Shown here one piece after another: positions 18,607 to 62,288 of a DNA stretch of 64,000 nt. The number at the start of each line of letters is the position of its first letter. The stretch's first letter is position 1. A model generated the notes under the pieces. That model saw nothing but the letters and a program-made list of their open reading frames with translations, was not told the origin of the DNA and ran no database searches. Origin of the DNA: a virus (lineage: Duplodnaviria > Caudoviricetes); the IMG/VR virus record IMGVR_UViG_3300038673_000510, positions 52,959 through 116,958 of that record. One strand, 5' to 3'. A program made the position numbers and the translations under genes.

Positions 18607-19284
18607 ATGTTTAAAACTTACCTTGAATATTTGACACGTAAAGAAAGAAGTATTGCTGCTAATAATGGACAGACCAACCTTACTCAAATAAATAAAGTGA
18701 CCGCGAGAGAGGATGATAAGCTTCCAGAATGGTGGTATAGTAATTTTTATACTACTCCCGAACATGTGACAACTAAAAAAGAATATATAGATTATTATTC
18801 AGATAAAATTAGTGAGGTTACTCCCAATACTGATTATAAAAAAATAAGAAAGAGAGTAATAGTCGTTCCACAGGGTAAAGCTTATTGTGGGGATTCAAAT
18901 GAAGTAATACATAATCCTATAATTGGATATATGATGTGCCTTGGATTAATTCCTATGACTATTGATCTTTCAGATTATCAATGGACTTATGAGCCGGTTG
19001 AGGCTAAAAATCTTTTAGCACTTGAAATTGCAGCCTATGGGTCATATCAATCAGAAATATATTTTTCGGAAAGTTATAATCCTTATACTTTGAAAGATAT
19101 TAAAAAAATTATTAATCGACACTATAATGAAGTTTTAAAAAAATTATTTAATATCACTACAGATGATATTCAGTTTATGGATCACCATTTAGAAGAATTA
19201 GAAAATGATGATGAAGATGATCCAGCTTACGATGACGATGACGATGTTTTTGCTTATTATGATAATCCATTTGAAGAGAGTTAA
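18607..19284 (+). CDS. YLE-leader protein, GQTNL paralog family, copy 1
   Basis: MFKTYLEYLTRKERSIAANNGQTNL; shares LPxW, IH..I..YMMC.G and ESY with 23948 and 25038. Confidence 0.75.
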   Translation: MFKTYLEYLTRKERSIAANNGQTNLTQINKVTAREDDKLPEWWYSNFYTTPEHVTTKKEYIDYYSDKISEVTPNTDYKKIRKRVIVVPQGKAYCGDSNEVIHNPIIGYMMCLGLIPMTIDLSDYQWTYEPVEAKNLLALEIAAYGSYQSEIYFSESYNPYTLKDIKKIINRHYNEVLKKLFNITTDDIQFMDHHLEELENDDEDDPAYDDDDDVFAYYDNPFEES

Positions 19285-19683
19285 ATTATGAAAAAAACAT
19301 TAGATTTTTATTTAGAGATGATATTTCAAAAAGATAATAAAGATTTTACTAAAAATTTTAAGTATTCGGCAAAACTCGAGACAATAGAAAGACATTTATT
19401 TGGTGATTATCTTTATATATTGTCTGAAAAAGTTGAAAATAAAGTTCCATATAAATATAAATGGAAAAAAGCAAAATCAAGAAAAGATTCAGATAAATAT
19501 AATCAGTATAGAATCATAGTTGACTCAGCAACTGGCGAACCTGTTGTAAGATACGAATGGGCTACTTCAATCTTTGAATCTGATATTCCTAAAGAACAAT
19601 TTTTTAAAGAAATAAAAGATTTTGTACAAGAAGAAAAAATAAAATTAAAAAGGTTAATGGATACAATGTTTCCTAAATATTAA
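19021..19683 (+). repeat. Donor copy of the 663-bp duplicated segment
   Basis: 19309-19683 equals 21979-22353. 19021-19318 equals 22354-22652 apart from one substitution and one extra A. Confidence 0.95.
19288..19683 (+). CDS. YLE-leader hypothetical protein (original copy)
   Basis: MKKTLDFYLEMIF...; identical to 21961-22353 from YLE onward. Confidence 0.8.
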   Translation: MKKTLDFYLEMIFQKDNKDFTKNFKYSAKLETIERHLFGDYLYILSEKVENKVPYKYKWKKAKSRKDSDKYNQYRIIVDSATGEPVVRYEWATSIFESDIPKEQFFKEIKDFVQEEKIKLKRLMDTMFPKY

Positions 19684-19684
19684 T

Positions 19685-20056
19685 ATGTTAAAAATATATT
19701 TAGAAAATATATCACAAGAACGTTGGCAGGAATATATAGAAAGAATACCGATGCTTAAAGCTGGTGTTGAGGTACTTCATAAACTTGAAAAATTTGGTGA
19801 AGCATATATAGTTGGTGGCGCAGTTCGTGATATAGTTTCAGGTACTAAAGAGCCACATGATATAGATATAGCAACTAATGTGCCAATGGAAGTAATTGCT
19901 AAAATTTTTGGTAATGATAAAATCAATGATATAGGTGCCTCAAAAGATTTTGGAATAATTACTTTACAGTATAAAGGCTTTAATTATGAAATAGCTCAAT
20001 TTAGATCGGAATCTTATGTTGAACCAGATTATGTACAAAGAATAATAGAGGAATAA
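19685..20056 (+). CDS. cca: Split CCA-adding tRNA nucleotidyltransferase, N-terminal fragment
   Basis: Motif A AYIVGGAVRD...DIDIATN and YEIAQFRSESY, then 12 extra residues and a stop. Confidence 0.9.
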   Translation: MLKIYLENISQERWQEYIERIPMLKAGVEVLHKLEKFGEAYIVGGAVRDIVSGTKEPHDIDIATNVPMEVIAKIFGNDKINDIGASKDFGIITLQYKGFNYEIAQFRSESYVEPDYVQRIIEE

Positions 20057-20884
20057 AATGTACGGATATGTTTATAAAACAACGAACTTGATAAATAATA
20101 AAATTTATATAGGACAAAAGGTTTCTTCGAAATTTTTGTTATCATATTATGGTTCTGGTGTAATTTTGAAACGTGCACTTAAAAAATATGGAAAGGATAA
20201 TTTTTTAATTGAAATGCTATGTGAATGTGATTCTCAAAATGATTTAGATTCTAAGGAAATTTTATTTATTGATAAATATAAAAATGAACATAATGAACAA
20301 TGTTATAATATTGCCTCCGGTTCTAAATTTGGTGGTAATCAAATGAAATATGCTACTAACGAAAAAATTCAAGAAAAAAATCAAAAAATTAGTATTGCTA
20401 ATAAAGGAAAAAAAGCTTGGAATAGGGGTTTAACCATTAATGATCCAAGAGTTAAATTGTATGCCGATAAACATAAGGGTTTTACTTATTCAGAGGCATC
20501 TTTAGAAAAAATGTCTATAAGTGCAAAAATTAGAGCTAATAAACCAGAAAATGTTAATAGGATGAAAAATAATAATCCGGCGCAAAATCCTATTATTGCA
20601 GAAAAAATTAGTAAATCATTACAAGGTAAAATGGTATTAGATAAAAATCCTAACTGGAATACTTTAGATGAAAATAAAATTAAGGAAATGTATTTTGCTG
20701 GATATAAAATTAAAGATATAGCTAATTATTTTGAAGTTGGGACTCAATCGATTACCAGAAGAATAAAAAAATTAAAATTAGCAAAAAGATTAAGGAGTTC
20801 TTTAATATGAAATTAGGCCCTATAGAAAAATTTAATCCTAATAATCCAGAACATCTTGATCCCAAAAAATATAAAATAACTTAT
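20018..20884 (+). mobile_element. 867-bp endonuclease cassette interrupting cca
   Basis: CTTAT direct repeats at 20013-20017 and 20880-20884. In-frame removal restores FRSESYKSSGRKP. Confidence 0.6.
20058..20810 (+). CDS. GIY-YIG homing endonuclease (Seg-like) inside the split cca
   Basis: MYGYVYKTTNLINNKIYIGQ...YYGSG...E...YNI; KAWNRG, NNPA and NPNW modules; C-terminal HTH. Confidence 0.92.
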   Translation: MYGYVYKTTNLINNKIYIGQKVSSKFLLSYYGSGVILKRALKKYGKDNFLIEMLCECDSQNDLDSKEILFIDKYKNEHNEQCYNIASGSKFGGNQMKYATNEKIQEKNQKISIANKGKKAWNRGLTINDPRVKLYADKHKGFTYSEASLEKMSISAKIRANKPENVNRMKNNNPAQNPIIAEKISKSLQGKMVLDKNPNWNTLDENKIKEMYFAGYKIKDIANYFEVGTQSITRRIKKLKLAKRLRSSLI

Positions 20885-21964
20885 AAAAGTTCTGGTCGTA
20901 AACCAACAAGTGTTCAAATTGAAATGTCATTTAAAGAGGATGCTAAAAGAAGAGATTTCACTTTCAACGCTATGGCAATAGATAGTAAAGGAAATGTTAT
21001 AGATTATTTTGATGGACAACAAGCTATTCAGAGTAAAATTCTTAAAACCGTTGGTGATCCAGAACAAAGGTTTACTGAAGATTATTTAAGAATGATGCGA
21101 GCAATTAGATTTGCAAGTAGACTTGGATTTAATATTGATCCTCAAACTGGTGAGGCTATTAAAAAGCATGCCACTAAAATTTCAGGAATATCATCAGAAA
21201 GAATCTTAAAAGAACTATTAAGTATGGCAGAACAGTCTGGAAGTAAATTTGCTGATGCTATTATTGGGTTAAATGATTTTGGATTACTTCAACATATTCT
21301 GCCAGAGATAGTTTCCATGGATGAATATGAGCATGATGAAGAAACTCACCCCGAAGGAAATGTATATCAACACACGCTTGCTGCATTAAGAGCAAACGGA
21401 ATTGTTGATCCAATTATAAATCTTGCTATTTTATTACATGATATAGGGAAGACTACTACACGAACTTATAAAGATAATGGAAAGGTTCAATATCTTGGAC
21501 ATGCACAGGCGGGAATATCATTAATTGAAAAAATTGCAAATAGACTTAAGATGGACAATGATGCAAAAGACGCATTAATCTTTGCGGCCGAAAATCATAT
21601 GAAAATGCACAATTTACTTAATATGAGCAATGCAAAGATATACGCTTTAATTAAAAATAAGAATTGGAACGTATTGTATAATGTTGCTCTTGCGGACCAA
21701 AAAGCGCGGGGAAATCTCTTCCAAAAGGCCGATTGGGACAAGACTGTAGAGCGAATTGAAGATGTAACAAATAAGTATGCTAATCAAGATTTTCAAAAAG
21801 CTATTAAGAAAGTTCTTAATGGTGAAATGGTTATGCAGTTAAAGGGATTAAAACCAGGTCCAGAAGTCGGTAAAATTATTAATCAAACTATGGATTGGAT
21901 TTTAAATAAAAATATTGATATCAATGATATCGAAAAAATTAAGAGGTATATAATAAGCATATGA
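20807..21964 (+). CDS. cca: Split CCA-adding enzyme, C-terminal fragment with HD domain
   Basis: SGRKP...EDAKRRDFTFNAMA (motif B), DYFDG (C), FTEDYLRMMRAIRF (D), SSERILKEL (E), HPEGNVYQHT and LLHDIGK (HD). It has its own AAGGAG RBS at 20792. Confidence 0.92.
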   Translation: MKLGPIEKFNPNNPEHLDPKKYKITYKSSGRKPTSVQIEMSFKEDAKRRDFTFNAMAIDSKGNVIDYFDGQQAIQSKILKTVGDPEQRFTEDYLRMMRAIRFASRLGFNIDPQTGEAIKKHATKISGISSERILKELLSMAEQSGSKFADAIIGLNDFGLLQHILPEIVSMDEYEHDEETHPEGNVYQHTLAALRANGIVDPIINLAILLHDIGKTTTRTYKDNGKVQYLGHAQAGISLIEKIANRLKMDNDAKDALIFAAENHMKMHNLLNMSNAKIYALIKNKNWNVLYNVALADQKARGNLFQKADWDKTVERIEDVTNKYANQDFQKAIKKVLNGEMVMQLKGLKPGPEVGKIINQTMDWILNKNIDINDIEKIKRYIISI

Positions 21965-22353
21965 CAACTTTAGAAATGTATTTAGAGATGATATTTCAAA
22001 AAGATAATAAAGATTTTACTAAAAATTTTAAGTATTCGGCAAAACTCGAGACAATAGAAAGACATTTATTTGGTGATTATCTTTATATATTGTCTGAAAA
22101 AGTTGAAAATAAAGTTCCATATAAATATAAATGGAAAAAAGCAAAATCAAGAAAAGATTCAGATAAATATAATCAGTATAGAATCATAGTTGACTCAGCA
22201 ACTGGCGAACCTGTTGTAAGATACGAATGGGCTACTTCAATCTTTGAATCTGATATTCCTAAAGAACAATTTTTTAAAGAAATAAAAGATTTTGTACAAG
22301 AAGAAAAAATAAAATTAAAAAGGTTAATGGATACAATGTTTCCTAAATATTAA
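21961..22353 (+). CDS. Chimeric duplicate of 19288-19683 carrying the leader of the disrupted target gene
   Basis: MTTLEM leader, then identical to the 19288 gene from YLE to the stop. Confidence 0.8.
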   Translation: MTTLEMYLEMIFQKDNKDFTKNFKYSAKLETIERHLFGDYLYILSEKVENKVPYKYKWKKAKSRKDSDKYNQYRIIVDSATGEPVVRYEWATSIFESDIPKEQFFKEIKDFVQEEKIKLKRLMDTMFPKY

Positions 22354-22652
22354 CTTGAAATTGCAGCCTATGGGTCATATCAATCAGAAATATATTTTTC
22401 GGAAAGTTATAATCCTTATACTTTGAAAGATATTAAAAAAATTATTAATCGACACTATAATGAAGTTTTAAAAAAATTATTTAATATCACTACAGATGAT
22501 ATTCAGTTTATGGATCACCATTTAGAAGAATTAGAAAATGATGATGAAGATGATCCAGCTTACGATGACGATGACGATGTTTTTGCTTATTATGATAATC
22601 CATTTGAAGAGAATTAAATTATGAAAAAAAACATTAGATTTTTATTTAGAGA
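21979..22652 (+). repeat. Circularly permuted copy of 19021-19683 between TATTTAGAGA direct repeats
   Basis: The order is B-A here and A-B in the donor. Novel joint ...aaatattaa|cttgaaattgc at 22353/22354; direct repeats at 21979-21988 and 22643-22652. Confidence 0.92.
22354..22617 (+). pseudogene. Duplicated 3' fragment of gene 18607-19284
   Basis: Identical to the last 88 codons of that gene except one base; no proper start. Confidence 0.85.
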
Positions 22653-22669
22653 GAGTACAAGATCAACAG

Positions 22670-23149: not shown

Positions 23150-23151
23150 TT

Positions 23152-23439
23152 ATGAAAAAAAGTTTACATGATTATATTGAAACACTTGATTCTCTTGAGA
23201 ATGATGTTATTAGTATCAATTTATTTGATGATAAAATTATTCAAGCATTAAAAGATGCCAGAGATGGTGATATAATTTTTATGCCGGAATCTGATTATGG
23301 TTTTGGAGAAATATATAAAATTCACAATTGGTTAATTGTGTTTTTAATTCCTAATTTTGGCGGAATTCCAGAATTTCATAATGCCTATCGTTTATCTGAT
23401 GTTGAAGATATGATTCAAGAATTAAGAAGTTTAACATAA
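23152..23439 (+). CDS. hypothetical protein with a YIE leader
   Basis: MKKSLHDYIETLD. Confidence 0.7.
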   Translation: MKKSLHDYIETLDSLENDVISINLFDDKIIQALKDARDGDIIFMPESDYGFGEIYKIHNWLIVFLIPNFGGIPEFHNAYRLSDVEDMIQELRSLT

Positions 23440-23448
23440 TGGTATAAT

Positions 23449-23943
23449 ATGAGTTTAGCATTATATTTAGAAATTACTAACAATCATGATTTTGATCGCA
23501 ATGCTTATTTGAAATGGAAAAGAAAAAATGTAACTTACCGTGGAATAAAATCTTTTGGTAAAGATAATGAAGTGTATGGTTCTTTTGGAAGAGGACTATA
23601 CACTGTTCCATTATCAAATAAGTCTATGGCAAAACAATATGGAAAACTTTATTTCGTAGTTGGAGCTATACCAAAAAATCCCAAAATTGTACAGTCTATA
23701 AATGATGCTGAAATACTTTTACAAAAATTAATTATAGATTATTGTAAAGGACAAAATCATACAAAGGATTATGATCCTTCTTTTTTTGAAAATCATACAT
23801 CTATGGATAAAGAGCTTGTTAAACAAGGATATGATGGTTTTATAATTAAAGGCAGAGAAATTGTTAATTATAAACCCAATAATATTCTTTACTTTCCAAC
23901 GGAAGAAGAAGTAATACATCACTGGAAAAATATTGCGGAGTAA
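23449..23943 (+). CDS. Putative ADP-ribosyltransferase-fold protein with YLE leader
   Basis: VTYRG...FGRGLYT...AKQYG...GYDGFIIKGREIVNYKPNNI resembles ART-fold phage domains. Confidence 0.55.
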   Translation: MSLALYLEITNNHDFDRNAYLKWKRKNVTYRGIKSFGKDNEVYGSFGRGLYTVPLSNKSMAKQYGKLYFVVGAIPKNPKIVQSINDAEILLQKLIIDYCKGQNHTKDYDPSFFENHTSMDKELVKQGYDGFIIKGREIVNYKPNNILYFPTEEEVIHHWKNIAE

Positions 23944-23947
23944 TAAA

Positions 23948-24532
23948 ATGATATTTAGAGATTATCTTGAAATAATGACACGTCAAGAAATGCGACGTGC
24001 CGCTAACGCTGGTCAAACAAATCTTGAAAAAGTTGGTGAAGTATTGTCACGTAGCGATAGTGGATTATTGCCAAGATGGTTTCTAATATTGTTAGAAGAA
24101 CAACTCAATATGGAAAACATAAGATATAAATCAGATTTTATTGAAGTAATGAATGAAACAATATTTGATAATAAGATTAAACCATACCCACAAAACGCAC
24201 CAGAAAGTATTAGATTTATAATAACAAAAAATGGAGAATGCTTCTGGTGTGTTGCTGATGATGCTATTCATGGATCCATTCTTGCTTATATGATGTGCAA
24301 AGGTAAACTTCAAATGTTTGAAGAATTATTAGATTATGGATCTTGGTCTGAAACAATTGCATCTACTGATTATTTTATAGCTTTTATATGGGATGCTGAT
24401 GATAGTGAAACAAAATTAGCTGAAAGTTATGCTTATGAACTTGAAGAAATGGTTATGAGAAAATTATTTGTGCCACCATATAAAGATTATTTATTAAATA
24501 TAACAGGGTCATTAGAAATAAGTCCAAGTTAA
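23948..24532 (+). CDS. YLE-leader protein, GQTNL paralog family, copy 2
   Basis: MIFRDYLEIMTRQEMRRAANAGQTNL...IITKNGECFWC...IHGSILAYMMCKG. Confidence 0.8.
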   Translation: MIFRDYLEIMTRQEMRRAANAGQTNLEKVGEVLSRSDSGLLPRWFLILLEEQLNMENIRYKSDFIEVMNETIFDNKIKPYPQNAPESIRFIITKNGECFWCVADDAIHGSILAYMMCKGKLQMFEELLDYGSWSETIASTDYFIAFIWDADDSETKLAESYAYELEEMVMRKLFVPPYKDYLLNITGSLEISPS

Positions 24533-24543
24533 GAGAGAATACA

Positions 24544-25041
24544 ATGAGAAATAATTTAGCGCTTTATTTAGAATACTTACAATACCCAGAACCAGTTGAA
24601 TTAACTGATTTATATAATGAAGAAGATATTGTAAAGGGAAAAACCAATAATGGAAAGGGATGGTTTTACGCTGGCAATGATGAACATAAAAGTGAATTCT
24701 TTATGCTTAAACCTGGAGAAAACCATTGGGATCCATCTGTAGCAAAAAAGATGCAAAGTGTTGGATGGATTGATAAACCTGATTCCAATACTATGGAAAA
24801 AATATTTGCTGAAAATAAAATTATAAGATTTATTATAAATACTAATAATGAAAATGAACCAGTTACGGTTGAATCTGGTGGACAACTTGATAATTCAATT
24901 TATATTGGTATTATGAAATTAATGAAAAATAAAGTTGCTGGTCCTTTACAAAAAACAGCCAAAATAATTTGGGAATATGGAAAATCTGTTGGGCAAGCAA
25001 TTAAAAAATCATTTTCTGCGCAGGAGTGGCAATTAGCATGA
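24544..25041 (+). CDS. YLE-leader hypothetical protein
   Basis: MRNNLALYLEYLQ. Confidence 0.7.
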   Translation: MRNNLALYLEYLQYPEPVELTDLYNEEDIVKGKTNNGKGWFYAGNDEHKSEFFMLKPGENHWDPSVAKKMQSVGWIDKPDSNTMEKIFAENKIIRFIINTNNENEPVTVESGGQLDNSIYIGIMKLMKNKVAGPLQKTAKIIWEYGKSVGQAIKKSFSAQEWQLA

Positions 25042-25667
25042 TATTTAAAGATTATTTAGAAATGATGACAAGAAGCGAAATGAGACAAGCTGCTCAAAAT
25101 GGTCAAACAAATTTATTGCCTGGTCTTTCATCATTGAATAAAAAAGAAGTATTACTTCCCGAGTGGATGACAGATATGTTTGAAAATTGGGGAGCGGGAA
25201 ATGTACATGGGATGAGGTATAAATCTGATGTAATTGATAGATTTCAAAATGATGTTTTTAATGCCAAATTAAAACCTGTTCCATTTGATGTGCCAGAAAG
25301 TCTTACTAAAAGAATAAGAATTATTATTACTAAAAATGGCGAATGTTTTTGGTGTCGAGGATATAATGGAATTCATGGAAGTATTCTTGTGTATATGATG
25401 TGTATCGGTAAACTCCCGATGAAGAAAAGTTTTATTGATTATGATTATAAAGATGGATGGTGTTGGAATAATAATATAACTAAAACTTTTATAGCATTAG
25501 AAATGTTTTATGACCATAATAGAATAATTGTAAGAATGGCAGAAAGTTATCAAGAATTTTATGGAGCGCAGTTAAAACAATTATATCAAGATAAAACTTA
25601 TGAAGCTTTAGTAATGAAGTTTCTTAATTATCCTATACAAGATATAAAACTTAAATATCAATATTAA
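25038..25667 (+). CDS. YLE-leader protein, GQTNL paralog family, copy 3
   Basis: MIFKDYLEMMTRSEMRQAAQNGQTNL...IITKNGECFWC...IHGSILVYMMCIG. Confidence 0.8.
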   Translation: MIFKDYLEMMTRSEMRQAAQNGQTNLLPGLSSLNKKEVLLPEWMTDMFENWGAGNVHGMRYKSDVIDRFQNDVFNAKLKPVPFDVPESLTKRIRIIITKNGECFWCRGYNGIHGSILVYMMCIGKLPMKKSFIDYDYKDGWCWNNNITKTFIALEMFYDHNRIIVRMAESYQEFYGAQLKQLYQDKTYEALVMKFLNYPIQDIKLKYQY

Positions 25668-26206: not shown

Positions 26207-26214
26207 GTAATATA
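26207..26214 (+). promoter_or_regulatory. putative late promoter GTAATATA
   Basis: Upstream of the AAA ATPase/neck operon. Confidence 0.55.
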
Positions 26215-26250: not shown

Positions 26251-27879
26251 ATGATTAATATGAAGGCTTATTTTGAAGGTGCAGTTAGTGCTAAAAATTC
26301 TGGACGTGTTGTTGATATTCTTAAATCCAGAGTATCGCGTCAAGTAGGACAACAAATATATGCTACAACTGCAATGGATGTAGTTATTAAAGATGGTAAA
26401 AAAGTTTATGGTATTTTCTTAATGTTCGAAGATGGCCATCATGCTATAAGATTAAACTGGATTTCTACTGATACATCTGCTTCAATTGATAGTATTGACT
26501 TTTGGATTCATGTGTCTAAAAATCCTCAATATTCTGCAGATACAAAAGATATGAACATAGTTCAAATTGTTGAACTTATTGACGATGTTGTTAAGGGCGT
26601 AAATCTTAAAGAAGAAGATACAATTCAAGAAAGTATAAAACCGGTATTAGAAGCAGCAGGAAAAACATTTAAAGATGTAAAAAATCTTTTAGAGAATAAG
26701 GGATATATTATTGAAAAGGATCCCGCGTTTACTGTCCGTCGTTATCTTGTAACTGATAAAAAAACAAAAGAAGTAACACCAATTCGTTATATTCCAGTTA
26801 TGGATGAAATGTATGGCGAAATAATGCAAATCGGTGTTCCTGCATTCTTAAATAAGTATAATGCTGCTGGGGGCGGAGCAAAAACTTCAGGTGGTCGTTT
26901 AAAAGCAGCATCACCAGAAACTCCAGTAGAAGTAAAAAGTTCTCCATTTGATTCATTATTTGAAGATCCACTAAATGAAAAAGAATTGTTTAAGTTACTT
27001 GAAACTGGAGTCGAAGAAGTTAAAGCTGGTTTATCAAAAACTATGATTGTATCTGGAGACCCTGGAGTTGGAAAATCGTTTACAATATTACAAGGAATGG
27101 TTGGAACCAATTTTGAGGTTTTTAAAGGAACAATCACATCTGCTGCGGCTCTTTATAAGACCTTGTTTCTTAACAATGAATCAAAGAAAACTCTCATCTT
27201 TGATGACCTTGATACTCTTCTTGAAGATAGAGAATGTGTGAATATTCTTAAAGGAGCCCTTGAAAGTGTACAAAATCCAGAAGTTAGTTATCTTAGCAAT
27301 AACTGTGTTCATCCTACTTACTACAAAGTTCTTACAGGTGAATACGACGCCAATGATCCTAAAGTACGTCAGTCTTTAAAATTACTAAAGATTGATCTTG
27401 ATGCAATGAGCGAAAAACGTCTTGAGGCTATGCAGATGAGAGCATCTGATCCATATTCTGCAGCAGCTATATTGCCTAATAAATTTGTTTTCTTATCTCG
27501 TATTATATTCATTACAAATAAATATCTTGACGAACTTCCTTCTGCCATTAAGTCACGTGGTGGTACAAAAGTAGAAGTAAACCTTACTCTTGCTGAAATA
27601 GTAAAACGTATTGGTAGCGTTCTTGATAAACTTGATATTCCAGTAGAGCCAGGTACACCTCCAATTAGTATGGCAGCAAGAAAAGCTGCACTAAAATATT
27701 GTAACGATGTTCTTATTCCTTATGGAAAAATAAAGAAACTTGATTTTAGAGGATTCTTTGAGATTTGTAAAAAAGCTTCCGGTGATGCACCACAAGAAGT
27801 TTGGTATCGTTGGGTATCTCGCATGCTTCAAGAAAGTTATGGTGAAAAAATGATTGTTGGCAAGAGGGAGAAAAGATAA
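26251..27879 (+). CDS. AAA+ ATPase with an N-terminal extension
   Basis: Walker A GDPGVGKS, Walker B LIFDDLD, sensor IIFITN, Arg finger AIKSR. Confidence 0.85.
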   Translation: MINMKAYFEGAVSAKNSGRVVDILKSRVSRQVGQQIYATTAMDVVIKDGKKVYGIFLMFEDGHHAIRLNWISTDTSASIDSIDFWIHVSKNPQYSADTKDMNIVQIVELIDDVVKGVNLKEEDTIQESIKPVLEAAGKTFKDVKNLLENKGYIIEKDPAFTVRRYLVTDKKTKEVTPIRYIPVMDEMYGEIMQIGVPAFLNKYNAAGGGAKTSGGRLKAASPETPVEVKSSPFDSLFEDPLNEKELFKLLETGVEEVKAGLSKTMIVSGDPGVGKSFTILQGMVGTNFEVFKGTITSAAALYKTLFLNNESKKTLIFDDLDTLLEDRECVNILKGALESVQNPEVSYLSNNCVHPTYYKVLTGEYDANDPKVRQSLKLLKIDLDAMSEKRLEAMQMRASDPYSAAAILPNKFVFLSRIIFITNKYLDELPSAIKSRGGTKVEVNLTLAEIVKRIGSVLDKLDIPVEPGTPPISMAARKAALKYCNDVLIPYGKIKKLDFRGFFEICKKASGDAPQEVWYRWVSRMLQESYGEKMIVGKREKR

Positions 27880-51526: not shown

Positions 51527-51534
51527 GTAATATA
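51527..51534 (+). promoter_or_regulatory. putative late promoter GTAATATA heading the second YLE-gene cluster
   Basis: Follows the terminators and precedes an AAGGAG RBS. Confidence 0.6.
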
Positions 51535-51552
51535 AATTAAAGGAGAATAATT

Positions 51553-52333: not shown

Positions 52334-52606
52334 ATGAGTAAAAGTATATTTGAAGTTTATTTTGATAAAATAAATCAGTCTTATAAAGATCTAAATCCAA
52401 CTATAAATACACAAGGTGGAAAACCTAAAAAGGCTTTTGTTAAAGTATCCACAGAAGATAGAATGGCAAAAAAACATGGAGTATCAAAAGATAAACTATG
52501 TGGTCATTGTTATGGCACTGGGAAAATTAAAGATGAAGATAAAAGCGATACGAATAGAATATTTAGAAAAGCATGCCCAAGTTGTGAAGGCAAAGGACAT
52601 TTCTAA
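52334..52606 (+). CDS. small protein with a DnaJ-type zinc finger
   Basis: CGHCYGTG and CPSCEGKG. Confidence 0.75.
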   Translation: MSKSIFEVYFDKINQSYKDLNPTINTQGGKPKKAFVKVSTEDRMAKKHGVSKDKLCGHCYGTGKIKDEDKSDTNRIFRKACPSCEGKGHF

Positions 52607-52772: not shown

Positions 52773-53372
52773 ATGAAAATATTTTTAAAAGCAATACATG
52801 AAGATAAAAATCTTAATTCGTCAAATATTATAGTAACTTATCAAGGAAGATTTAGTCCGCCAACTCGTGCACATATTTATGTTTATAAGACTTTGTGTAA
52901 TGAATTTGGTCCAGATAAAATTTACATATTAACTGCTGATCCCAAAAAATTGGACGAAAAAAATCCATATACATTTGCAGAAAAAAAAGATATGTTACAA
53001 GCTGCTGGTGTACCATCTGATAAAATTAAACAAATTATTGGTTCAGCATATAACTGGAATGTTATTGCTAATGCAGTTGGGATAACTAATCCAAATGAAA
53101 CTGTTTTGGTTGCATCAATGGGCGCTAAAGATGCAGAAGAAAGAACTAAATATGGAACTTATTATAAAATTTATAATGACAAAATCCCATTAGAAGATAT
53201 GACAAATCGTGGTTATATAAAAATAATAGCCAATATGAATATTGATGGAACTGAAACTCCTGTAAATGCATCAAGTATGCGTAAGGCTATTTCCGAAAAA
53301 GACATAGATATAATAAAACAAAATGTAGAACCAGGAGTATTTAATTGGTTAAGGGAGAATAATAAAATATGA
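52773..53372 (+). CDS. Cytidylyltransferase-like (HxGH-type) nucleotidyltransferase
   Basis: GRFSPPTRAH, KNPYTFAEKK, NASSMRKAI. Confidence 0.8.
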   Translation: MKIFLKAIHEDKNLNSSNIIVTYQGRFSPPTRAHIYVYKTLCNEFGPDKIYILTADPKKLDEKNPYTFAEKKDMLQAAGVPSDKIKQIIGSAYNWNVIANAVGITNPNETVLVASMGAKDAEERTKYGTYYKIYNDKIPLEDMTNRGYIKIIANMNIDGTETPVNASSMRKAISEKDIDIIKQNVEPGVFNWLRENNKI

Positions 53373-53737
53373 ATTTAAGCGAATATTTAAAAAAATACAA
53401 CGAGGAAAACGCAATAGTTGACCTTAAGCCAGATCAGCTTAATAATGCTGGTGGACTTATATTAAGAATAAAAATTGGTAATGCTATGGAATCAGTAGCA
53501 ATTCCAAAAGGTGAATTTGTACCACTCGACCAAAACGGAGAAACATATAATATTCTTTTAAATGATTCTGTTATATCGCGTATTCAAAGTGCCATATTAA
53601 AAGCTAAAGGAAATAATTCGCAATATACTTCTTTTGCTGAAGCTATTAGTTCATTTAAAGGACAAAAGATTAAGGTCTATTTAAACAAAGCAGAGATATA
53701 TTATAATACAGATACTGGAGCATTAAACTTCCGATGA
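53369..53737 (+). CDS. hypothetical protein with a YL leader
   Basis: MNLSEYLKKYNEE. Confidence 0.65.
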   Translation: MNLSEYLKKYNEENAIVDLKPDQLNNAGGLILRIKIGNAMESVAIPKGEFVPLDQNGETYNILLNDSVISRIQSAILKAKGNNSQYTSFAEAISSFKGQKIKVYLNKAEIYYNTDTGALNFR

Positions 53738-54601: not shown

Positions 54602-54927
54602 TGATGAATTGGGATGATATGACCAAAGAACAAAAGCAAGATTTTATTGCGGATTATACCGATAAACACAATACCACTTTATCTCTTTATGATGAAGTTA
54701 TGGGATTAATATTTTATAATGATATGATAAATAATTGGTGGATGACTGGTGATAATGATGCACAAGAACAAATCTGGTCATCGTTAACTTCTTCTGAAAA
54801 AATATCTAAGGTTGAAGACGAAGTGTTATCATGGGATAAAACAATTTTAATTGAATTTTTAATTGATAATATGAATAGTCAACAAATAGAGACTTTTAAA
54901 AATATATATAATGAGATTAATAAATGA
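54601..54927 (+). CDS. hypothetical protein
   Basis: GAGG RBS; repeated W..(M/L)T..(Q/E)K units. Confidence 0.6.
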   Translation: MMNWDDMTKEQKQDFIADYTDKHNTTLSLYDEVMGLIFYNDMINNWWMTGDNDAQEQIWSSLTSSEKISKVEDEVLSWDKTILIEFLIDNMNSQQIETFKNIYNEINK

Positions 54928-56177
54928 ATTTTCTTGATTATCTTGAAGATATACAATCGGCGGGCCCAAATTTACATCAAACACATCTTGAAGATGAAAT
55001 ACTAAGTTATGGTAAAGATGGAATGCTTTATATCGCTGAAATATTACAAACGATAGCTAAAGATGGATTAACTGATAAATTTAAAATAACAGTTAAGTTT
55101 GATGGCAGTCCTGCATTAATTTTTGGTATATTACCATCAGATGTTACAACATCAAATGGCGTATCAATGAAGAAGGGGAGTTTTTTTGTTGGCACTAAAG
55201 GTGTTTTTAATGCAACACCAAAAATTGCCCCAACTGCAAAAGCTACTGAAGAATTATATGGCGGCGAACTCGGAAAGATTATGGGATTTGCTTTCGAGTA
55301 TTTACAAAAAATATATCAAGGAAACAATGTATATCAAGGCGATTTAATGTTTGCTGAAATAGCAGATAGAAAAAAAGTAATTCGTGTAATTGATAATCAA
55401 AAATATTTTACATTTAAACCCAATACAATTATATATACTATTCCAGTATCATCAGAAGAAGGACAAAAGATTTATAACAAAAAATTTGGTATTGTTGTAC
55501 ATACAAAATATACCGGCGAAAATCTTGATGACATGCACATTTCTTTTAATGTGTCAGAAAATGAATTTAAAATAAATTCAGACGTTTGGTTGGTAGATGC
55601 TAAACGCAAAAACATTAATGGTGGGTCATTATTACTTCCTGAAGATGCAAAACGAATAGATGGAATGGGAAGATATATTATTGATAATTTAAATAAAATT
55701 GAAGATAGTTTTTTTGATGATATGAAAAAATTTCAGCCTGAATATTTATTTGCCACATTTCTTAATGTAAGAATCAGAAATGGAAATAAAAAAATCATTG
55801 ATGATATAGATGCATTTATAACAGAGTTTAAAGAATGGATGACCAGTAGAACAGAAAGCGAAAAACGTACTATTAAAACCGATAAAGGTAAAGCAAGACG
55901 CGATGAAATACTAAAAAATAATTTAGCTATTATAGATAACAATAAAGAGTCTTTTGTTCAATTATTAAAGGTATATAAAGTAGTTATAAAAGCAAAAAGT
56001 ATGATTATAGAAGCATTAAATAATTCTACTCAAAGTTTACAAACATTTTTACAAACTGACGCCGGATTAATTCGCACAAATCCAGAAGGATATTGTGTGG
56101 TTAATATAAATGAAAAAATAAGTAAATTAGTTAATAGATTAGAATTTTCAAAGGCTAATTTTCAGAAAGATATTTAA
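54924..56177 (+). CDS. RNA-ligase-fold covalent nucleotidyltransferase (DUF6267-like) with YLE leader
   Basis: HQTHLED, motif I TVKFDGSPA, YQGDLMF, GIVVHT, motif IV PEGYCV, motif V KLVNRLEFS. Confidence 0.7.
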   Translation: MNFLDYLEDIQSAGPNLHQTHLEDEILSYGKDGMLYIAEILQTIAKDGLTDKFKITVKFDGSPALIFGILPSDVTTSNGVSMKKGSFFVGTKGVFNATPKIAPTAKATEELYGGELGKIMGFAFEYLQKIYQGNNVYQGDLMFAEIADRKKVIRVIDNQKYFTFKPNTIIYTIPVSSEEGQKIYNKKFGIVVHTKYTGENLDDMHISFNVSENEFKINSDVWLVDAKRKNINGGSLLLPEDAKRIDGMGRYIIDNLNKIEDSFFDDMKKFQPEYLFATFLNVRIRNGNKKIIDDIDAFITEFKEWMTSRTESEKRTIKTDKGKARRDEILKNNLAIIDNNKESFVQLLKVYKVVIKAKSMIIEALNNSTQSLQTFLQTDAGLIRTNPEGYCVVNINEKISKLVNRLEFSKANFQKDI

Positions 56178-56194: not shown

Positions 56195-56452
56195 ATGAAG
56201 AAAATTATTTTTATGATACTTACATTATGTATAGGATTTGGTCTTACACTTTCAGCAAAAGAATATTTTGAAGACAGTTATTATTATTGTGGTCATGATA
56301 CTTTTGTTAAATATAATGGAGTAGATAGTAAAGAAAAACAACTAAAAGCCAAAAAAGAATTTGGCTGCGACGTTCAATACGTAATGGGCGGCGGAGACGC
56401 TGTTTATTATAATTGGAACGGTCAAGTAATGGTTATAGGAGAGGTAAAATAA
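56195..56452 (+). CDS. small secreted protein
   Basis: Signal peptide MKKIIFMILTLCIGFGLTLSA. Confidence 0.7.
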   Translation: MKKIIFMILTLCIGFGLTLSAKEYFEDSYYYCGHDTFVKYNGVDSKEKQLKAKKEFGCDVQYVMGGGDAVYYNWNGQVMVIGEVK

Positions 56453-56802
56453 TGTCATTATTAAAAACATATTTAGATAAAGTATACAACGAGAGAATGG
56501 AAGGAAGTATGGCACCAGGTGCAACTTCAAAAGAATTTACAACAGGTAAAGGCACGGCTGGTGTAACAACAACTTATAAACTTGAACTTGCTGGTAATAT
56601 AATCACAGGTTATATTGGCAATGAACAAGTAAATATTTCTATTCAAGATTTTTCTGCAAAGTATCCAGAGATTGCTAAAGAAGTTCTTGAAAAATTAAAA
56701 GCCGATGGTTCTGCTCATTATACACCTAATGATACATCTGCAATAGATTTTGTAAAAAATCCACAAACGAAAAATACATTACAAGCTACACCAGATAAAT
56801 AA
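56452..56802 (+). CDS. hypothetical protein with a YLD leader
   Basis: GGAGAGG RBS and ATG 56452; MSLLKTYLDKVYNE. Confidence 0.65.
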   Translation: MSLLKTYLDKVYNERMEGSMAPGATSKEFTTGKGTAGVTTTYKLELAGNIITGYIGNEQVNISIQDFSAKYPEIAKEVLEKLKADGSAHYTPNDTSAIDFVKNPQTKNTLQATPDK

Positions 56803-58232: not shown

Positions 58233-58523
58233 ATGCAAACAAAATTAAGTGTATACTTAGAAAAAATAAACACATCATCCTCAATTAACTTTGAGGATGA
58301 TTTTTTTAAAGCCGGAAAATATAATGCTTATATAGCAACATATGGTTCTTTGGATTATGATGAAGAAGAACTTAATATGGGTATTGAAATAGAAATGGAA
58401 CATACTTCTGATCCTCGTATTGCTCGTAAAATAGCATTAGATCATTTGGCTGAATTTCCAAAATATTATACTGCGCTTAAAGAAATGGAAGCAAAACTTC
58501 GTAGAGAGACGAAAAATAAATGA
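58233..58523 (+). CDS. DUF5661-like protein with YLE leader
   Basis: ELNMGIEIEMEHT.DPRIARKIALDHLAEFPKYYTAL. Confidence 0.75.
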   Translation: MQTKLSVYLEKINTSSSINFEDDFFKAGKYNAYIATYGSLDYDEEELNMGIEIEMEHTSDPRIARKIALDHLAEFPKYYTALKEMEAKLRRETKNK

Positions 58524-59746
58524 AATTTTATTTAGAAAATATATATTTTGAAGGTAAACAACAAGCCCTTCAAATACTTGAGAAGAATGGTTTTTCAGGA
58601 TATGAATATAATCAAATTGAAAAACTCGATCCAACTTCGCCTAAAAATAAATACGTTGAATTATTAGCAAGACTATATATACAAGATGACAATTTTATAA
58701 AAAAAGCTATCAAAGATAAAATAGCAGATAAACTTGCCACAATAGAACAGCGTCATCAAACAATAACTAAAGTAAAAGATTATAATGATCTATTATCTCA
58801 GCTTCAAACTAATTTAGAAATTATTACTAAAGGTGATAAAAAACTTGGCATTAAGGGAATGACAGAAGGAAAAGACTTTATTAAAATTCCACTTAATACT
58901 CAAGAAAATATTCAAGCATATATTCCTCTTAGCTATAAAGCAAGTAAAGTTATAGCTTCTAAACAAGTTGGAAATTGTGTTGGAGAATGGTGTACAGCAA
59001 AACAAAAATCCAGTGAAGACTGGGATAATTATATATATGATATGGGTGGTATACTTGTTTATATTGTAGATGCTTCTGAAACAGCATCGGCGCCAACATT
59101 ATCCGATGAAAATATTAAAGTAGATAAATATGCAATATATTTTTATAGTGGTGAAACAGCAAGTGAATATTCTGATAAATTAGCCAATAAACATGTTGAA
59201 AATGGTGAGTTAGCAGAAGGCTTTGATATGAATGATAAAAGTCTTGATCCAACATTTATACCATTCTTTAAAACATGTCAACAATATGTACAAAAGAACT
59301 GGGAAACAATAAAAAAATCTCATGGTAAACTTGATATTAATATAGTAACAGAAGAAATGTTCTTAATAAATTATATATATAATAATAAAGAATTTAATAA
59401 TTTTGTAAATTTATTATTTAATAGAGATCAAATTAAGTATGGTGAATATAATGACACTATTGAATTAATAAATAAAACCGCATTTATAAGAAAAAAGAAT
59501 ACATTAGATTATGATATTATAGTTGGTTTTAATAGTGAAAAATTATTAAAGGATCATCCAATACAAATGCCATTAAAAGGTGGATATGGTCGACTTGAAA
59601 CATCTTTTATAAATAATGCACATGAATACATCACAAAAATTTTTATTCCAGAAGAATATAGAGAAAATTTTGAAGCATTATTAGCACGAAAAAATATGCC
59701 CGCAAATAAATATTTATTTGTTTACAAATTATCATCAATGCTATAA
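58520..59746 (+). CDS. YLE-leader protein with a PcfJ-like WCT motif
   Basis: DPTSPKNKYV; PLSYKAS...GEWCTA. Confidence 0.55.
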   Translation: MKFYLENIYFEGKQQALQILEKNGFSGYEYNQIEKLDPTSPKNKYVELLARLYIQDDNFIKKAIKDKIADKLATIEQRHQTITKVKDYNDLLSQLQTNLEIITKGDKKLGIKGMTEGKDFIKIPLNTQENIQAYIPLSYKASKVIASKQVGNCVGEWCTAKQKSSEDWDNYIYDMGGILVYIVDASETASAPTLSDENIKVDKYAIYFYSGETASEYSDKLANKHVENGELAEGFDMNDKSLDPTFIPFFKTCQQYVQKNWETIKKSHGKLDINIVTEEMFLINYIYNNKEFNNFVNLLFNRDQIKYGEYNDTIELINKTAFIRKKNTLDYDIIVGFNSEKLLKDHPIQMPLKGGYGRLETSFINNAHEYITKIFIPEEYRENFEALLARKNMPANKYLFVYKLSSML

Positions 59747-59781
59747 TATAATAAATAAATCTTTAATATAGAGAGCAATTA

Positions 59782-60870
59782 ATGAACGACTCAATCATAC
59801 AAATATTACATCACAATAGAGATAGACAGAAGTTAATAAATCAAATAGATGACTACATTAAAAATATGATGAATACTACAATAGCTATTTCTTTATATCA
59901 TTTTAATGTGTTCTATGATTTTATTACACCATTTAATGAAGCACAAGTAGTAGTAAGCAATTATAAACAATATATCGATGAAGATATTGCTATCAATGAT
60001 ACTTCTTGTATTTACTCCATGGAACAATCATCAGCAGTAATACAAGATATGCATAATAACTTAAATACAACATCATGTGTGCATAATAGTTTTTTAAAAG
60101 AATGGTTAAATAAACGTGGTGTAGAAGATGATCAAATTTTAAAATACGGTTTGATGGATCTATCACATATTAATAAATATAATATGTTTGAACAAAACGC
60201 AACTGGTGGAACAATCCATCCTGCTTTAAGACATTGGATAAAAGATGATGCTTCTCCAACAGGTGTTCCATCCGGTATTATGACGCCAGTAGTAGATTTA
60301 TGGGGAAACATAGTTGGATGTCACAATCGATTTCTTTCTACTGTTCCTAAAATAAAATTTGCTTCATCTATTCCCAATTTTCATTTATTCACAAACTTAA
60401 GAATTAATAGTAAACCAATAAAAATATTTATTGTTGAAGGTGTATTTGACGCACTGGCAATAGATAAAATGAATCCTAATTATCATTGGATAGCGCCAAG
60501 CACGGGATTTTGGACAGAAGAACAATTGATTAATTTATTATTTACTATATCACATTTTAATTCTGCTGAAATAATTTGTGCTTTTGATAATGATAGAGTT
60601 GGATTAAAAAGTAATATAATATTAGCTAAAACACTTTTAAAAACAAAATATAATGTTAATATTATGAATTTTAAAAATATAGAAGCAAAAGATCCGGCGG
60701 AAGCAATTAATAAATATAAAATGACTGAAGATTGCTTAGCTAAAATAGATATTAAAGTTGCTTTAGAAAAATTTATAAATATGCCGTATGAACCTTTTAA
60801 AAAATTTGAAGATTATCTCGATAATCGTCATGCTTCATATAGTATTGATAATTATCATTGGAGTGAATAA
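59782..60870 (+). CDS. DnaG-type TOPRIM primase lacking an obvious Zn-binding domain
   Basis: WLNKRG, PVVDLWGNIVG..NR, IVEGVFDAL, AFDNDRVG, KDPAE. Confidence 0.8.
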   Translation: MNDSIIQILHHNRDRQKLINQIDDYIKNMMNTTIAISLYHFNVFYDFITPFNEAQVVVSNYKQYIDEDIAINDTSCIYSMEQSSAVIQDMHNNLNTTSCVHNSFLKEWLNKRGVEDDQILKYGLMDLSHINKYNMFEQNATGGTIHPALRHWIKDDASPTGVPSGIMTPVVDLWGNIVGCHNRFLSTVPKIKFASSIPNFHLFTNLRINSKPIKIFIVEGVFDALAIDKMNPNYHWIAPSTGFWTEEQLINLLFTISHFNSAEIICAFDNDRVGLKSNIILAKTLLKTKYNVNIMNFKNIEAKDPAEAINKYKMTEDCLAKIDIKVALEKFINMPYEPFKKFEDYLDNRHASYSIDNYHWSE

Positions 60871-62288
60871 TGAAACTTAAATTAAATAGTTATTTAGAAA
60901 TGGCAAGAGCAAAAGACCCTGCAAAAGAATTAATAGGATTTATTCTTGAAAAACTTGATGAACAAGGATTCAATAGAACAAATAAAACAGACACGAAAGT
61001 TAACTTTCAAACTGAGAATCCTAAAGAAATAAAAACAATAATAGAATCAACATTACCAGGTTTGGCATGTTCAATTGGACAGCCAATTATGTCTAAGGCA
61101 CTTGGAGGATTATCAAATACATTCCCAACATATGAACTTAAATTAACAAAGAATTTTACTTACGGTGATACAGTATATCCAAAAGGATTAATACTTCTGG
61201 TTGCTAATACATTCCGCGGTGGTATGCTTGGTGATAAATCATTAACTCCTAATGAATTACGTCTTGAAGATGTTAAATGGCTAAAAGCAAATGATATACA
61301 AAAAACTGTATTAAAGAATATTGATCCTAAACTCGGCGAGAATACAAAACATTTTGCCGAAATGTTAATGAATGAAGTAATTACAAAAACATCTCTTAAG
61401 GCTAAAAAAGATGGATTAATTGATGTTGAAGATAACGAACAAACTATAATAAAACTATCTGATACTACATTAGCACTAATTAACACTATGGATAGTAGAG
61501 ACCTTAATATTATTGGAAAGAATTTTGGTGAAGTTCTTGGTGGTATTTATTTCTTTAAAAAATATGGTGCAACAAATGTACAATATCCAAGCCAAAGTAA
61601 TTTTCCATTAATTGACTTTATTGTTGATGATGTAGTTTATGTATCTGCTAAATATGCTTCTGGCGCGGCACCATCAATTAAAATACTCGCTGAAAAAGTA
61701 CAGGAAAATCCAAAAGCATTTGTTAAAGTAGACAGAAGACTTAAAAGTATTCTTAATGCTATGCTAAAAGAAAGTGTATTTTTTTCTTATATAAATGCCG
61801 CAAAAGAAATGGATAGTGTAATTTATCATCAAATGATGAAGTATAATTTAATTACTGATGATGAAAAAGAAAGCAAACAATTAATGAATGATTTTCTTAT
61901 AAAGAAGTTTAATAGTTTTAAACAAGATGAAGAAAAGATGGCAAAATTTCTTCAGAAAGAATTCTGGCAATATGCTAAGAGCGCACCAGATCTTGATAAT
62001 GCAATGGAAAAATTACGTTCTGGAGTTAAAACGGAAGGTATTATATTCTATCCAATGGAAAGTGAATTGGTTGACATAATGAATAAAGATGAAGCAATCT
62101 TATCGGGATTAAAAACAATTACTAAAACTATTGGAGTAAAACAATTATATTTTAATTTTGAAATCAATAAAAAGAAACAGAATCTTACGTTTTTAATTAA
62201 GTTCTTCGGCACAAAAGATTTCAAATTTGCACTCACAAGCAGTGTAAATATGTATTTAAATAGTAATTTATCGTTCAAAATGACATAA
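60870..62288 (+). CDS. YLE-leader protein with a putative PD-(D/E)xK nuclease fold
   Basis: KNFGEVLG...YPSQSNFPLIDFIVDDVVYVSAK. Confidence 0.55.
   Translation: MKLKLNSYLEMARAKDPAKELIGFILEKLDEQGFNRTNKTDTKVNFQTENPKEIKTIIESTLPGLACSIGQPIMSKALGGLSNTFPTYELKLTKNFTYGDTVYPKGLILLVANTFRGGMLGDKSLTPNELRLEDVKWLKANDIQKTVLKNIDPKLGENTKHFAEMLMNEVITKTSLKAKKDGLIDVEDNEQTIIKLSDTTLALINTMDSRDLNIIGKNFGEVLGGIYFFKKYGATNVQYPSQSNFPLIDFIVDDVVYVSAKYASGAAPSIKILAEKVQENPKAFVKVDRRLKSILNAMLKESVFFSYINAAKEMDSVIYHQMMKYNLITDDEKESKQLMNDFLIKKFNSFKQDEEKMAKFLQKEFWQYAKSAPDLDNAMEKLRSGVKTEGIIFYPMESELVDIMNKDEAILSGLKTITKTIGVKQLYFNFEINKKKQNLTFLIKFFGTKDFKFALTSSVNMYLNSNLSFKMT

Follow-up and report, generated by a model that had tools for sequence, protein, structure and literature searches.

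What is the same short peptide doing at the start of so many otherwise dissimilar phage proteins? The window analysed here, 64,000 nucleotides long, is part of the 116,958-bp record of an uncultured T4-like phage, in which we called genes anew and obtained 173 ATG-started proteins. The tripeptide Y-L-E lies inside the first 14 residues of 16 of these 173 proteins, against seven occurrences in the 30,454 remaining positions of the proteome, a 34-fold N-terminal enrichment (binomial P 2e-19, whole record). No other N-terminal tripeptide comes near it in enrichment, the runner-up reaching P 3e-6, and as a leader Y-L-E marks about one tenth of the phage's proteins. All 13 exact Y-L-E leaders named in the original prediction are present at their starts (18607, 19288, 19685, 21961, 23449, 23948, 24544, 25038, 53734, 54924, 58233, 58520 and 60870), and its expectation of enrichment over the whole proteome is borne out.

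These tests, together with a control in which only 1 of 664 internal methionines is followed by YLE within the next 14 residues, rule out chance as the origin of the leader. Paralogy alone is also ruled out as the source of the shared start, since 13 independent families are left after collapse and the enrichment persists among them (P 7e-15). About 20 unrelated proteins had been proposed to carry the leader; the sharing holds, but the count and the unrelatedness give way to about 13 families without detectable mutual similarity, whose Pfam domains differ or are lacking, with paralogues and duplicates among their members. Genes 18607, 23948 and 25038 and one gene outside the window are paralogues (family A), and 19288 and 21961 are duplicates (family B).

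Tagged genes and the protein bodies behind the leader

Most tagged genes of the window fall into two clusters, listed here with the promoter-like word that heads each; G001, G002 and L005 are relatives.

Cluster 1
18565..18573, + strand: GTAATATAA promoter-like word, 41 nt upstream of 18607
18607..19284, + strand: tagged, MFKTYLE; family A (QNGQTNL paralogues); no Pfam or PHROG family
19288..19683, + strand: tagged, MKKTLDFYLE; family B
19685..20056, + strand: tagged, MLKIYLE; N-terminal half of a CCA-adding/poly(A) polymerase-type nucleotidyltransferase (Pfam PolyA_pol)
21961..22353, + strand: tagged, MTTLEMYLE; family B copy, 98% identical to 19288
23152..23439, + strand: variant leader, MKKSLHDYIE
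23449..23943, + strand: tagged, MSLALYLE
23948..24532, + strand: tagged, MIFRDYLE; family A
24544..25041, + strand: tagged, MRNNLALYLE
25038..25667, + strand: tagged, MIFKDYLE; family A
26251..27879, + strand: variant leader, MINMKAYFE; 542-aa protein with its own GTAATATAA word upstream; the G001 orthologue starts MLKKYFE

Cluster 2
51527..51535, + strand: GTAATATAA promoter-like word, 25 nt upstream of 51553
52334..52606, + strand: variant leader, MSKSIFEVYFD; DnaJ-type zinc-finger-like protein
53369..53737, + strand: variant leader, MNLSEYLKKYNE; similar start, MKFGKYLKSKYNE, in L005
53734..54120, + strand: tagged, MNLYQYLE
54924..56177, + strand: tagged, MNFLDYLE; DUF6267 protein, Pfam profile from residue 16
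56452..56802, + strand: variant leader, MSLLKTYLD; the G001 orthologue, 61% identical, starts MSKFDTYME
58233..58523, + strand: tagged, MQTKLSVYLE; DUF5661 protein
58520..59746, + strand: tagged, MKFYLE; 408-aa protein with distant tagged G002 homologues (MFNIYLE, MNIFTTYIE)
60870..62288, + strand: tagged, MKLKLNSYLE; 472-aa protein

As had been predicted, GTAATATA heads both clusters, in the form tGTAATATAA, with 41 nt separating it from 18607 and 25 nt from 51553. Preceded by a T-rich stretch, GTAATATAA recurs at 15230 ahead of the scaffold gene, at 26208 ahead of gene 26251 and at 35375 ahead of the sheath operon. The word may be a late promoter, though it precedes a Toprim gene as well.

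The proposed variant leaders fared unevenly. Those of 26251 (YFE) and 56452 (YLD) stand, their orthologues keeping the leader as YFE and YME, respectively, and those of 23152 (YIE), 52334 (YFD) and 53369 (YLK) are acceptable as fits to the pattern [F/L]-x-x-Y. The NUDIX gene (TTG start, YLK) and genes 56813 and 57533, in which the Tyr is residue 14, are doubtful. NrdD, gp46/47, the Toprim gene and the GIY-YIG genes do lack the leader, as originally noted.

Tagged proteins outside the window include an HD-domain hydrolase and a P-loop kinase. Pfam domains start after the leader, AAA_33 at residue 15, HD_4 at 23, DUF6267 at 16 and PolyA_pol, the head domain of the 19685 gene, at 40; judged by these boundaries, the leader is an add-on to the protein bodies. 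The C-terminal half of the split CCA-adding enzyme (20807-21964) carries no tag. The cyanophage DUF6267 homologues (P-HM1, S-PM2) have no leader and start directly at the conserved LxHLEDEIL, DUF6267 was not found in five related records, and homologues of the DUF5661 protein (58233) in relatives have no clear tag. In T4-like cyanophages DUF6267 adjoins T4-GC190, a cytidylyltransferase, with its C-terminal part placed in the same ORF in S-PM2. This cytidylyltransferase has been detected in purified S-SM1 virions (PMC3037559 Table S8). Most tagged proteins are small orphans in fast-changing tandem arrays, and searches for relatives or folds of family A and of the 472-aa protein (60870) gave nothing useful.

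Distribution among relatives and selection on the peptide

The whole relatives G001 and G002 (51-52% capsid-protein identity) encode 19 and 32 N-terminal YLE proteins, a 29-fold enrichment in each (P 2e-21 and 2e-35), and in ten related loci around the capsid gene an N-terminal YLE is found on 28 of 211 genes (40-fold). Nearly all of the 61 tagged proteins from relatives are without a Pfam family. Across 849 genes of 70 other T4-like loci no YLE tag was found, the few matches being conserved core proteins, and G004, a relative of 290 kb, shows no enrichment, with only about seven leaders. These comparisons rule out a general T4-like habit; by its distribution, the leader is a feature of one clade. 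Its consensus is [F/L]-x-x-Y-L-E, ending at residues 6-11 from the start: the Glu is residue 6-11 in 46 of 49 leaders, and, numbering from the Tyr as position 0, 80 of 90 leaders have F or L at -3.

Leader codons vary synonymously within this genome. The Leu of YLE, here TTA, is mainly CTT or CTC in G001 and G002, and the spelling of this peptide in relatives is TATCTTGAA, TATCTCGAA or TATCTTGAG. Because codons vary here and relatives use CTT/CTC and not TTA, the leader signal is, on the evidence of codon usage, selected at the protein level and not at the DNA level. This variation, here and in relatives, leads us to reject a DNA- or RNA-level motif. A signal in the mRNA, either a coding start rich in A/U that aids initiation or an operator through which a RegA-like repressor would control the translation of many genes at once, would suit a motif that lies within 30 nt of the start codon and is mostly TATTTAGA(A) in this genome, but we find it hardly credible: besides the relatives' different spellings, the leader lies anywhere between 9 and 24 nt from the AUG, TATTTAGA is found in frame a single time outside leaders and shows no excess in other frames or between genes, and the natural synonymous variants suggest that recoding leaves expression unchanged.

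The word TATTTAGA is present in 12 leaders (11 of the 16 YLE leaders and one YLD variant), and its 20 copies on the + strand, where about 11 are expected, include these 12. Set against codon bias, its presence in leaders is mostly due to TAT, TTA and GAA being common codons, with TTA somewhat over-used for the leader Leu (12 of 16 against 42% expected, P 0.007). The original prediction had also suggested that the word doubles as a recombination site. One real duplication joint speaks for this, as the identity between 19288 and 21961 begins exactly at the Tyr codon of YLE, but the word is not conserved in relatives and the DNA flanking the motif is dissimilar (35-40% identity), which leaves the idea weak.

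The same joint would be expected if the shared start were functionless, a relic of duplication or recombination at a common 5' end by which new bodies inherit an old first exon-like stub; the tandem arrays with their paralogues and some over-use of TATTTAGA agree with such an origin. We nevertheless consider it quite improbable. The peptide is retained while its codons change, both within the genome and between relatives (51-84% capsid identity), the DNA around it is not alike, orthologues keep the leader while their bodies diverge, and bodies of old, independent history (DUF6267, AAA_33, HD_4, PolyA_pol) bear it as an add-on.

Likeness to the T4 capsid targeting sequence

The original prediction had taken the leader for a capsid-targeting and protease signal on an injected payload, and had counted on a homologue of the T4 protease gp21. 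That homologue is present, its Peptidase_S77 match exceeding the curated cut-off, in the gene order portal-protease-scaffold-like gene-major capsid protein.

14114..14782, + strand: prohead protease, T4 gp21 family (PHROG 207 head maturation protease E 1e-31; Pfam Peptidase_S77 E 5e-17)
15262..16179, + strand: scaffold-like gene in the place of T4 gene 22, between the protease and capsid genes
16211..17791, + strand: major capsid protein, 27% identity to T4-type capsid proteins

The scaffold-like gene, for which no Pfam or PHROG family match was found, owes its assignment to position and is the presumed docking partner of the leader, as the gp21-family protease is the enzyme presumed to remove it. 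In G001 and L014, five small tagged genes lie between the protease and scaffold genes, and L004 and L005 have tagged genes between the neck and sheath genes.

Processing of the T4 capsid targeting sequence (CTS) depends on I8 and E10, and gp21 follows the rule L/I-x-E. The L and E of the leader are adjacent, at +1 and +2, a spacing one residue shorter, and the core differs, Y-L-E here against F-I-A-E or F-T-S in T4. The -3/0 spacing, in contrast, is i, i+3, the same as that of residues 4 and 7 of T4 IPIII, which carry the targeting function (PMC9026906). The last leader residue is Glu, the residue after which all known proteases of the gp21-type family cut (PMC5694885). Alignment of the major capsid protein (T4 gp23 and 12 clade members) places a conserved A-I-x-L-E45-N-Y opposite the gp23 cleavage site of T4, although it is weak there, and the invariant x-L-E45 of the capsid protein would fit an x-L-E cleavage rule. 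Counts of x-L-E or L/I-x-E in head proteins are too few to define the specificity of the protease.

The flanks also resemble T4. G002 leaders read MKTFKHYLEAVH and T4 IPI reads MKTFKEF, and one relative's leaders (MKTFKHYLE) have MKTFK in common with IPI, a likeness built of A/U-rich codons, which gene starts often have. A flank-only profile, restricted to columns not used for picking leaders and scored on 268 T4 ORFs, ranks IPI first and IPIII and IPII 11th and 12th (chance about 2e-3 for two distinct leaders); a full-width leader profile did not pick out the internal proteins among the T4 ORFs. For the tagged P-loop kinase, a poor AlphaFold model (pLDDT 55) made from the single sequence places at most a short helix, residues 3-8, ahead of the first strand.

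After comparison with relatives and T4, a capsid-targeting and processing leader of the T4 type is the best-supported reading, and it is partly supported. We lean towards a diverged, greatly expanded T4-type CTS, and the likeness to this head-loading tag suggests that the phage probably loads its head with a varied set of proteins and injects them. We infer that tagged proteins would enter the head, be cut after Glu and be injected. The leader, M-(K/N/T)-[F/L]-x-x-Y-L-E, 6-11 residues long and probably one turn or two of an amphipathic helix, would dock a new protein onto the prohead scaffolding core; the protease (14114-14782) would then remove it after a Glu; and the mature protein would stay alongside the DNA inside the head until injection brings it into the next host. 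Two bearers would be odd cargo: half of a CCA-adding enzyme that is split in two, and a DUF6267 protein with untagged cyanophage relatives.

The leader could instead be a protein-level address for a fate other than injection, either a handle for a shared partner (a chaperone, protease adaptor or multi-enzyme complex) or a mark of prohead-core proteins that are degraded at maturation and so not delivered. Selection on the peptide and not the DNA agrees with this, as do the several bearers that are ordinary cytoplasmic enzymes. The charge and size signature of DNA-associated internal proteins was not found, tagged proteins being neither more basic nor shorter than untagged ones, and T4 gp61.1 has a CTS-like start (MKTFKEFIKE) with, to our knowledge, no head-protein role. 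We regard such an address as unlikely, given that the two most conserved leader positions fall on the T4 targeting residues, that tagged genes of relatives sit inside head and neck operons, and that no candidate partner enzyme was found in the record. A search of the record for a modifying partner of the radical-SAM type gave as its sole match an NrdG-like gene beside NrdD.

Returning to capsid targeting, we tentatively propose a bolder form of it, in which this deep-branching T4-like lineage would use its diverged CTS to load dozens of proteins per virion, about one tenth of its coding capacity. The cargo, with RNA-repair and alarmone-degrading enzymes, would be injected as an immediate counter-defence kit, and the head would serve as a general delivery device with a portable address readable from sequence. 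If the leader serves as the T4 CTS does, a short motif would tell which proteins an entire uncultured lineage of phages packages and injects, and dozens of orphan proteins would become candidate first-minute effectors against host defences. Head loading by CTS would be old within the T4 superfamily and expandable more than ten-fold, and phage-based protein delivery would gain a second, different tag.

Comparison with known head-loading systems

The T4 CTS is known from three T4 proteins and a few T-even relatives. Like the leader, it is an N-terminal peptide of about ten residues on otherwise unrelated proteins, with aromatic or hydrophobic residues at a spacing of three and, after them, an aliphatic residue and Glu, and some members of both start M-K-T-F-K. 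Both systems encode a gp21-family (Peptidase_S77) protease and keep the genes concerned in fast-changing arrays. In contrast to T4, the Glu of the leader is one position closer, each genome encodes 16 to over 30 bearers, recognisable enzymes among them, where T4 has three, the capsid protein is only about 27% identical, and the leader is known from sequence alone.

The giant phages phiKZ, 201phi2-1 and SPN3US have head and ejection proteins with N-terminal propeptides (PMC5694885, PMC7411985, PMC10052503). There, a related prohead protease processes many head-packaged proteins after Glu; ejection of a large, varied cargo is an established possibility. Their propeptides, found by mass spectrometry, are mostly long (up to more than 100 residues) and have nothing in common beyond an A/S/G-x-E cut site, whereas the leader described here is short and nearly invariant and has been seen only in sequence.

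The variable internal-protein loci of T-even phages encode CTS-like basic proteins in T2, T6 and relatives (PMC9026906). They differ from the present arrays, which hold up to about 15 tagged genes and account for about 10% of the proteome, and whose leader DNA is unconserved between relatives. What they share is recombination at the leader, seen here in one joint, and mature parts that turn over fast behind a constant leader, a pattern read as an arms race with host defences.

The YLE leader and its bearers

The original prediction was that about 20 unrelated window proteins share a short N-terminal leader ending in Tyr-Leu-Glu (YLE), and all 13 exact leaders it claimed are present at their start codons. 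Using gene calls made independently of the motif, we found that 16 of the 173 proteins of the whole record have YLE among their first 14 residues; elsewhere in the proteome it occurs 7 times in 30,454 positions, so the N-terminal excess is 34-fold (P 2e-19). No other N-terminal tripeptide of the record comes near this enrichment, and only 1 of 664 internal methionines, examined as a control, is followed by YLE. The term "unrelated" needs narrowing, since some bearers are paralogues or duplicates: family A, which shares QNGQTNL, has three proteins in the window and one outside it, and 19288 and 21961 (genes are named by window start codon) are 98% identical. Even so, 13 independent families are left (P 7e-15). 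Further bearers are encoded outside the window:

HD_4 hydrolase, leader DYLTE
AAA_33 P-loop kinase, leader MNLKQYLE immediately before the Walker A strand
Four small proteins

We aligned 90 leaders at the tyrosine to define their anatomy. The glutamate is usually residue 8-10, and hydrophobic residues at i, i+3, i+4 and i+7 lie on a single helix face.

Residue preferences in 90 leaders, numbered from Tyr
-4: T/K/N
-3: F or L (80/90)
-2: K/N/Q
0: Y
+1: L (M, I)
+2: E
+4: V/A/I

By sequence comparison, the leader is an add-on to the protein bodies. Pfam domains of tagged proteins begin downstream of it, and the DUF6267 protein (54924-56177) has about 15 extra N-terminal residues compared to the cyanophage homologues of P-HM1 and S-PM2. 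Those homologues lack the leader and start directly at a conserved L-x-H-L-E-D-E-I-L.

A CCA-adding-type enzyme (19685-21964) is interrupted by a GIY-YIG gene (20058-20810); its N-half has the leader and PolyA_pol head positions 1-74, and its C-half, without a leader, restarts at profile position 69 and includes RNA-binding and HD domains. A 295-aa neck-module protein (32693-33580), whose C-terminal half is extremely acidic, carries YLE as residues 14-16. Homologues keep this feature (FYLEEL in locus L004, FYMEQF in locus L016), which may be a longer leader form carried by a conserved protein of the head or neck.

Distribution among T4-like phages

The whole record, from an uncultured phage, is 116,958 bp at 30% G+C, and the window is its right-hand 64 kb. 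The phage is a distant T4 relative, and its major capsid protein shares about 27% identity with T4-type proteins. CheckV completeness is 63%, and a separate 194,212-bp contig encodes a capsid protein identical letter for letter, so about one third of the genome is missing from the record, possibly with more tagged genes. The head module and sheath are arranged as follows:

10204-12327, portal
14114-14782, prohead protease, Peptidase_S77 (gp21-type)
15262-16179, scaffold-like gene, between protease and capsid genes
16211-17791, major capsid protein
35601-38546, sheath, downstream of the head genes with neck and tube genes

Elsewhere, the anaerobic ribonucleotide reductase gene (45641-49672; 1,343 residues) has an internal LAGLIDADG-type match, which suggests an insert, intein or other.

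Relatives were gathered by capsid-protein searches (44-87% identity). Around the capsid genes of ten related loci, an N-terminal YLE is encoded by 28 of 211 genes, a 40-fold excess. A set of 70 loci (849 genes) from other T4-like phages has no YLE tag; its few matches are the starts of conserved UvsW, portal and scaffold proteins. Counted over whole records, relatives G001 and G002 (51-52% capsid identity, 36-38% G+C) carry the N-terminal YLE on 19 and 32 proteins, a 29-fold excess in each case (P 2e-21 and 2e-35). In a relative of 290 kb (46% capsid identity) there are only about seven leaders, and the enrichment is not significant. The leader is a feature of one lineage.

Most bearers are orphan proteins of small size, encoded in tandem arrays. 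A Pfam search of 61 tagged proteins of the relatives gave almost no match, and for most tagged proteins of the present phage no homologue was found in the relatives. The few orthologues present retain a leader (56452, YLD/YME; 26251, YFE/YFE; the 58520 family, YLE/YIE). Among the arrays of tagged paralogues, the largest seen is in G002 (191 kb), where about 13 tagged genes follow in tandem on one strand at 125-135 kb (loci L123-L124); most of their products have 100-160 residues and start MKTF-x-x-YLEAVH.

Peptide signal versus nucleic-acid signal

Within the genome the codons of the motif are TAT or TAC for Tyr, TTA or CTT for Leu, and GAA or GAG for Glu, and in G001 and G002 it is mostly TATCTTGAA, TATCTCGAA and TATCTTGAG. 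Because the codons differ in this way and the distance from motif to ATG is variable, selection acts on the peptide, and we consider an mRNA signal very improbable. TATTTAGA looks frequent because TTA is somewhat preferred as the leader Leu codon (12/16 versus 42% at the starts of other genes, P 0.007).

It had also been proposed that TATTTAGA doubles as a recombination site. A segment (19020-19683) that takes in the 3' end of 18607 and the whole of 19288 recurs at 21966-22630, circularly permuted (A-B, then B-A) and 99-100% identical; the copy leaves a 64-aa fragment ORF (22423-22617), and its left joint to the resident gene falls exactly at the Tyr codon of that gene's leader. This one joint agrees with the proposal. 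Apart from this event, the DNA common to the leaders is 8-9 nt, their flanks are 35-40% identical and the relatives use other codons, and the proposal is weak. A functionless relic of recombination is an unlikely explanation of the leader.

Head genes, possible cleavage and the T4 capsid targeting sequence

Cluster 1 of tagged genes (18607-25667) lies between the capsid and neck genes, and tagged genes in L004 and L005 lie between neck and sheath genes. At locus L014 of G001, the prohead protease and scaffold genes are separated by a run of five tagged genes (72-165 residues, one product with a lysine-rich body). In T4, the genes for core proteins gp67 and gp68 adjoin the protease gene within one head operon. 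The predicted promoter-like word, tGTAATATAA with a T-rich tract upstream, does precede both clusters, and also the scaffold-like gene, gene 26251 and the sheath operon. It precedes a Toprim gene as well, so it is at most a candidate late promoter.

Proteases of the gp21-type family from T4, phiKZ, 201phi2-1 and SPN3US all cleave after Glu, e.g., SLE-13 and ALE-111 (PMC5694885). In the clade's capsid protein, A-I-x-L-E45-N-Y is invariant within an otherwise variable N-terminal region and stands opposite the T4 gp23 site L-T-E/A, although the alignment is weak there. This motif would fit a cut after x-L-E, hence directly after Y-L-E; counts of x-L-E-type motifs in the head proteins are too low to fix the specificity of the protease.

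An indirect experimental link to virions may come from cluster 2, where a cytidylyltransferase-like gene (52773-53372) is close to tagged DUF6267. In T4-like cyanophages, DUF6267 (T4-GC71) likewise adjoins cytidylyltransferase T4-GC190, and S-PM2 p142, annotated 'cytidyltransferase', is the C-terminal part of DUF6267 fused in frame to the transferase. T4-GC190 was detected in purified S-SM1 virions with 25 peptides (PMC3037559).

The T4 capsid targeting sequence (CTS), residues 1-10 of IPIII, is removed inside the head and brings foreign proteins into the capsid (PMC8442874; PMC9026906). We built a profile of the clade's leaders and used it to score 268 T4 ORFs at their N-termini. When all columns are used, the selected Y-L-E core outweighs the rest, and the internal proteins of T4 are therefore not prominent. 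When the profile is limited to the flanking columns, which were not used in selecting leaders, IPI ranks 1 and IPIII and IPII rank 11 and 12, a chance of about 2e-3 counting two distinct leaders.

Rank 4 in the flank-only profile is T4 gp61.1 (MKTFKEFIKE; NC_000866, 18966-19130), an unstudied 54-residue ORF beside primase gene 61 whose start nearly duplicates the IPI/IPIII leader. T4 nrdC.1 (48393-48635) starts MTKRKEYMETAEK, which fits the clade's Y-[LM]-E leader. Both lack annotation as head proteins. Tagged genes 58233, 58520 and 60870 of the window likewise flank a Toprim primase-like gene (59782-60870).

Taken together, we favor the leader being a diverged, much expanded CTS as the best and rather probable explanation. 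Against it, the core differs from that of T4, A/U-rich codons at gene starts could account for part of the flank likeness, charge and size are alike in tagged and untagged proteins, and half of a split CCA-adding enzyme is an odd cargo. A different protein-level address is a less likely but real alternative.

T4 IPII and IPIII start MKTYQEFIAE, and suppressor analysis assigns residues 4 and 7 to targeting and residues 8 and 10 to processing (PMC9026906). The aromatic residues 4 and 7 are spaced by three, as are the leader's two best-conserved hydrophobic positions, and Ile at residue 8 corresponds to the leader's Leu, and the leader's Glu comes one residue earlier than in T4. IPI starts MKTFKEFTST, and this M-K-T-F-K is common to G002 leaders such as MKTFKHYLEAVH and MKTFNDYLEAVH.
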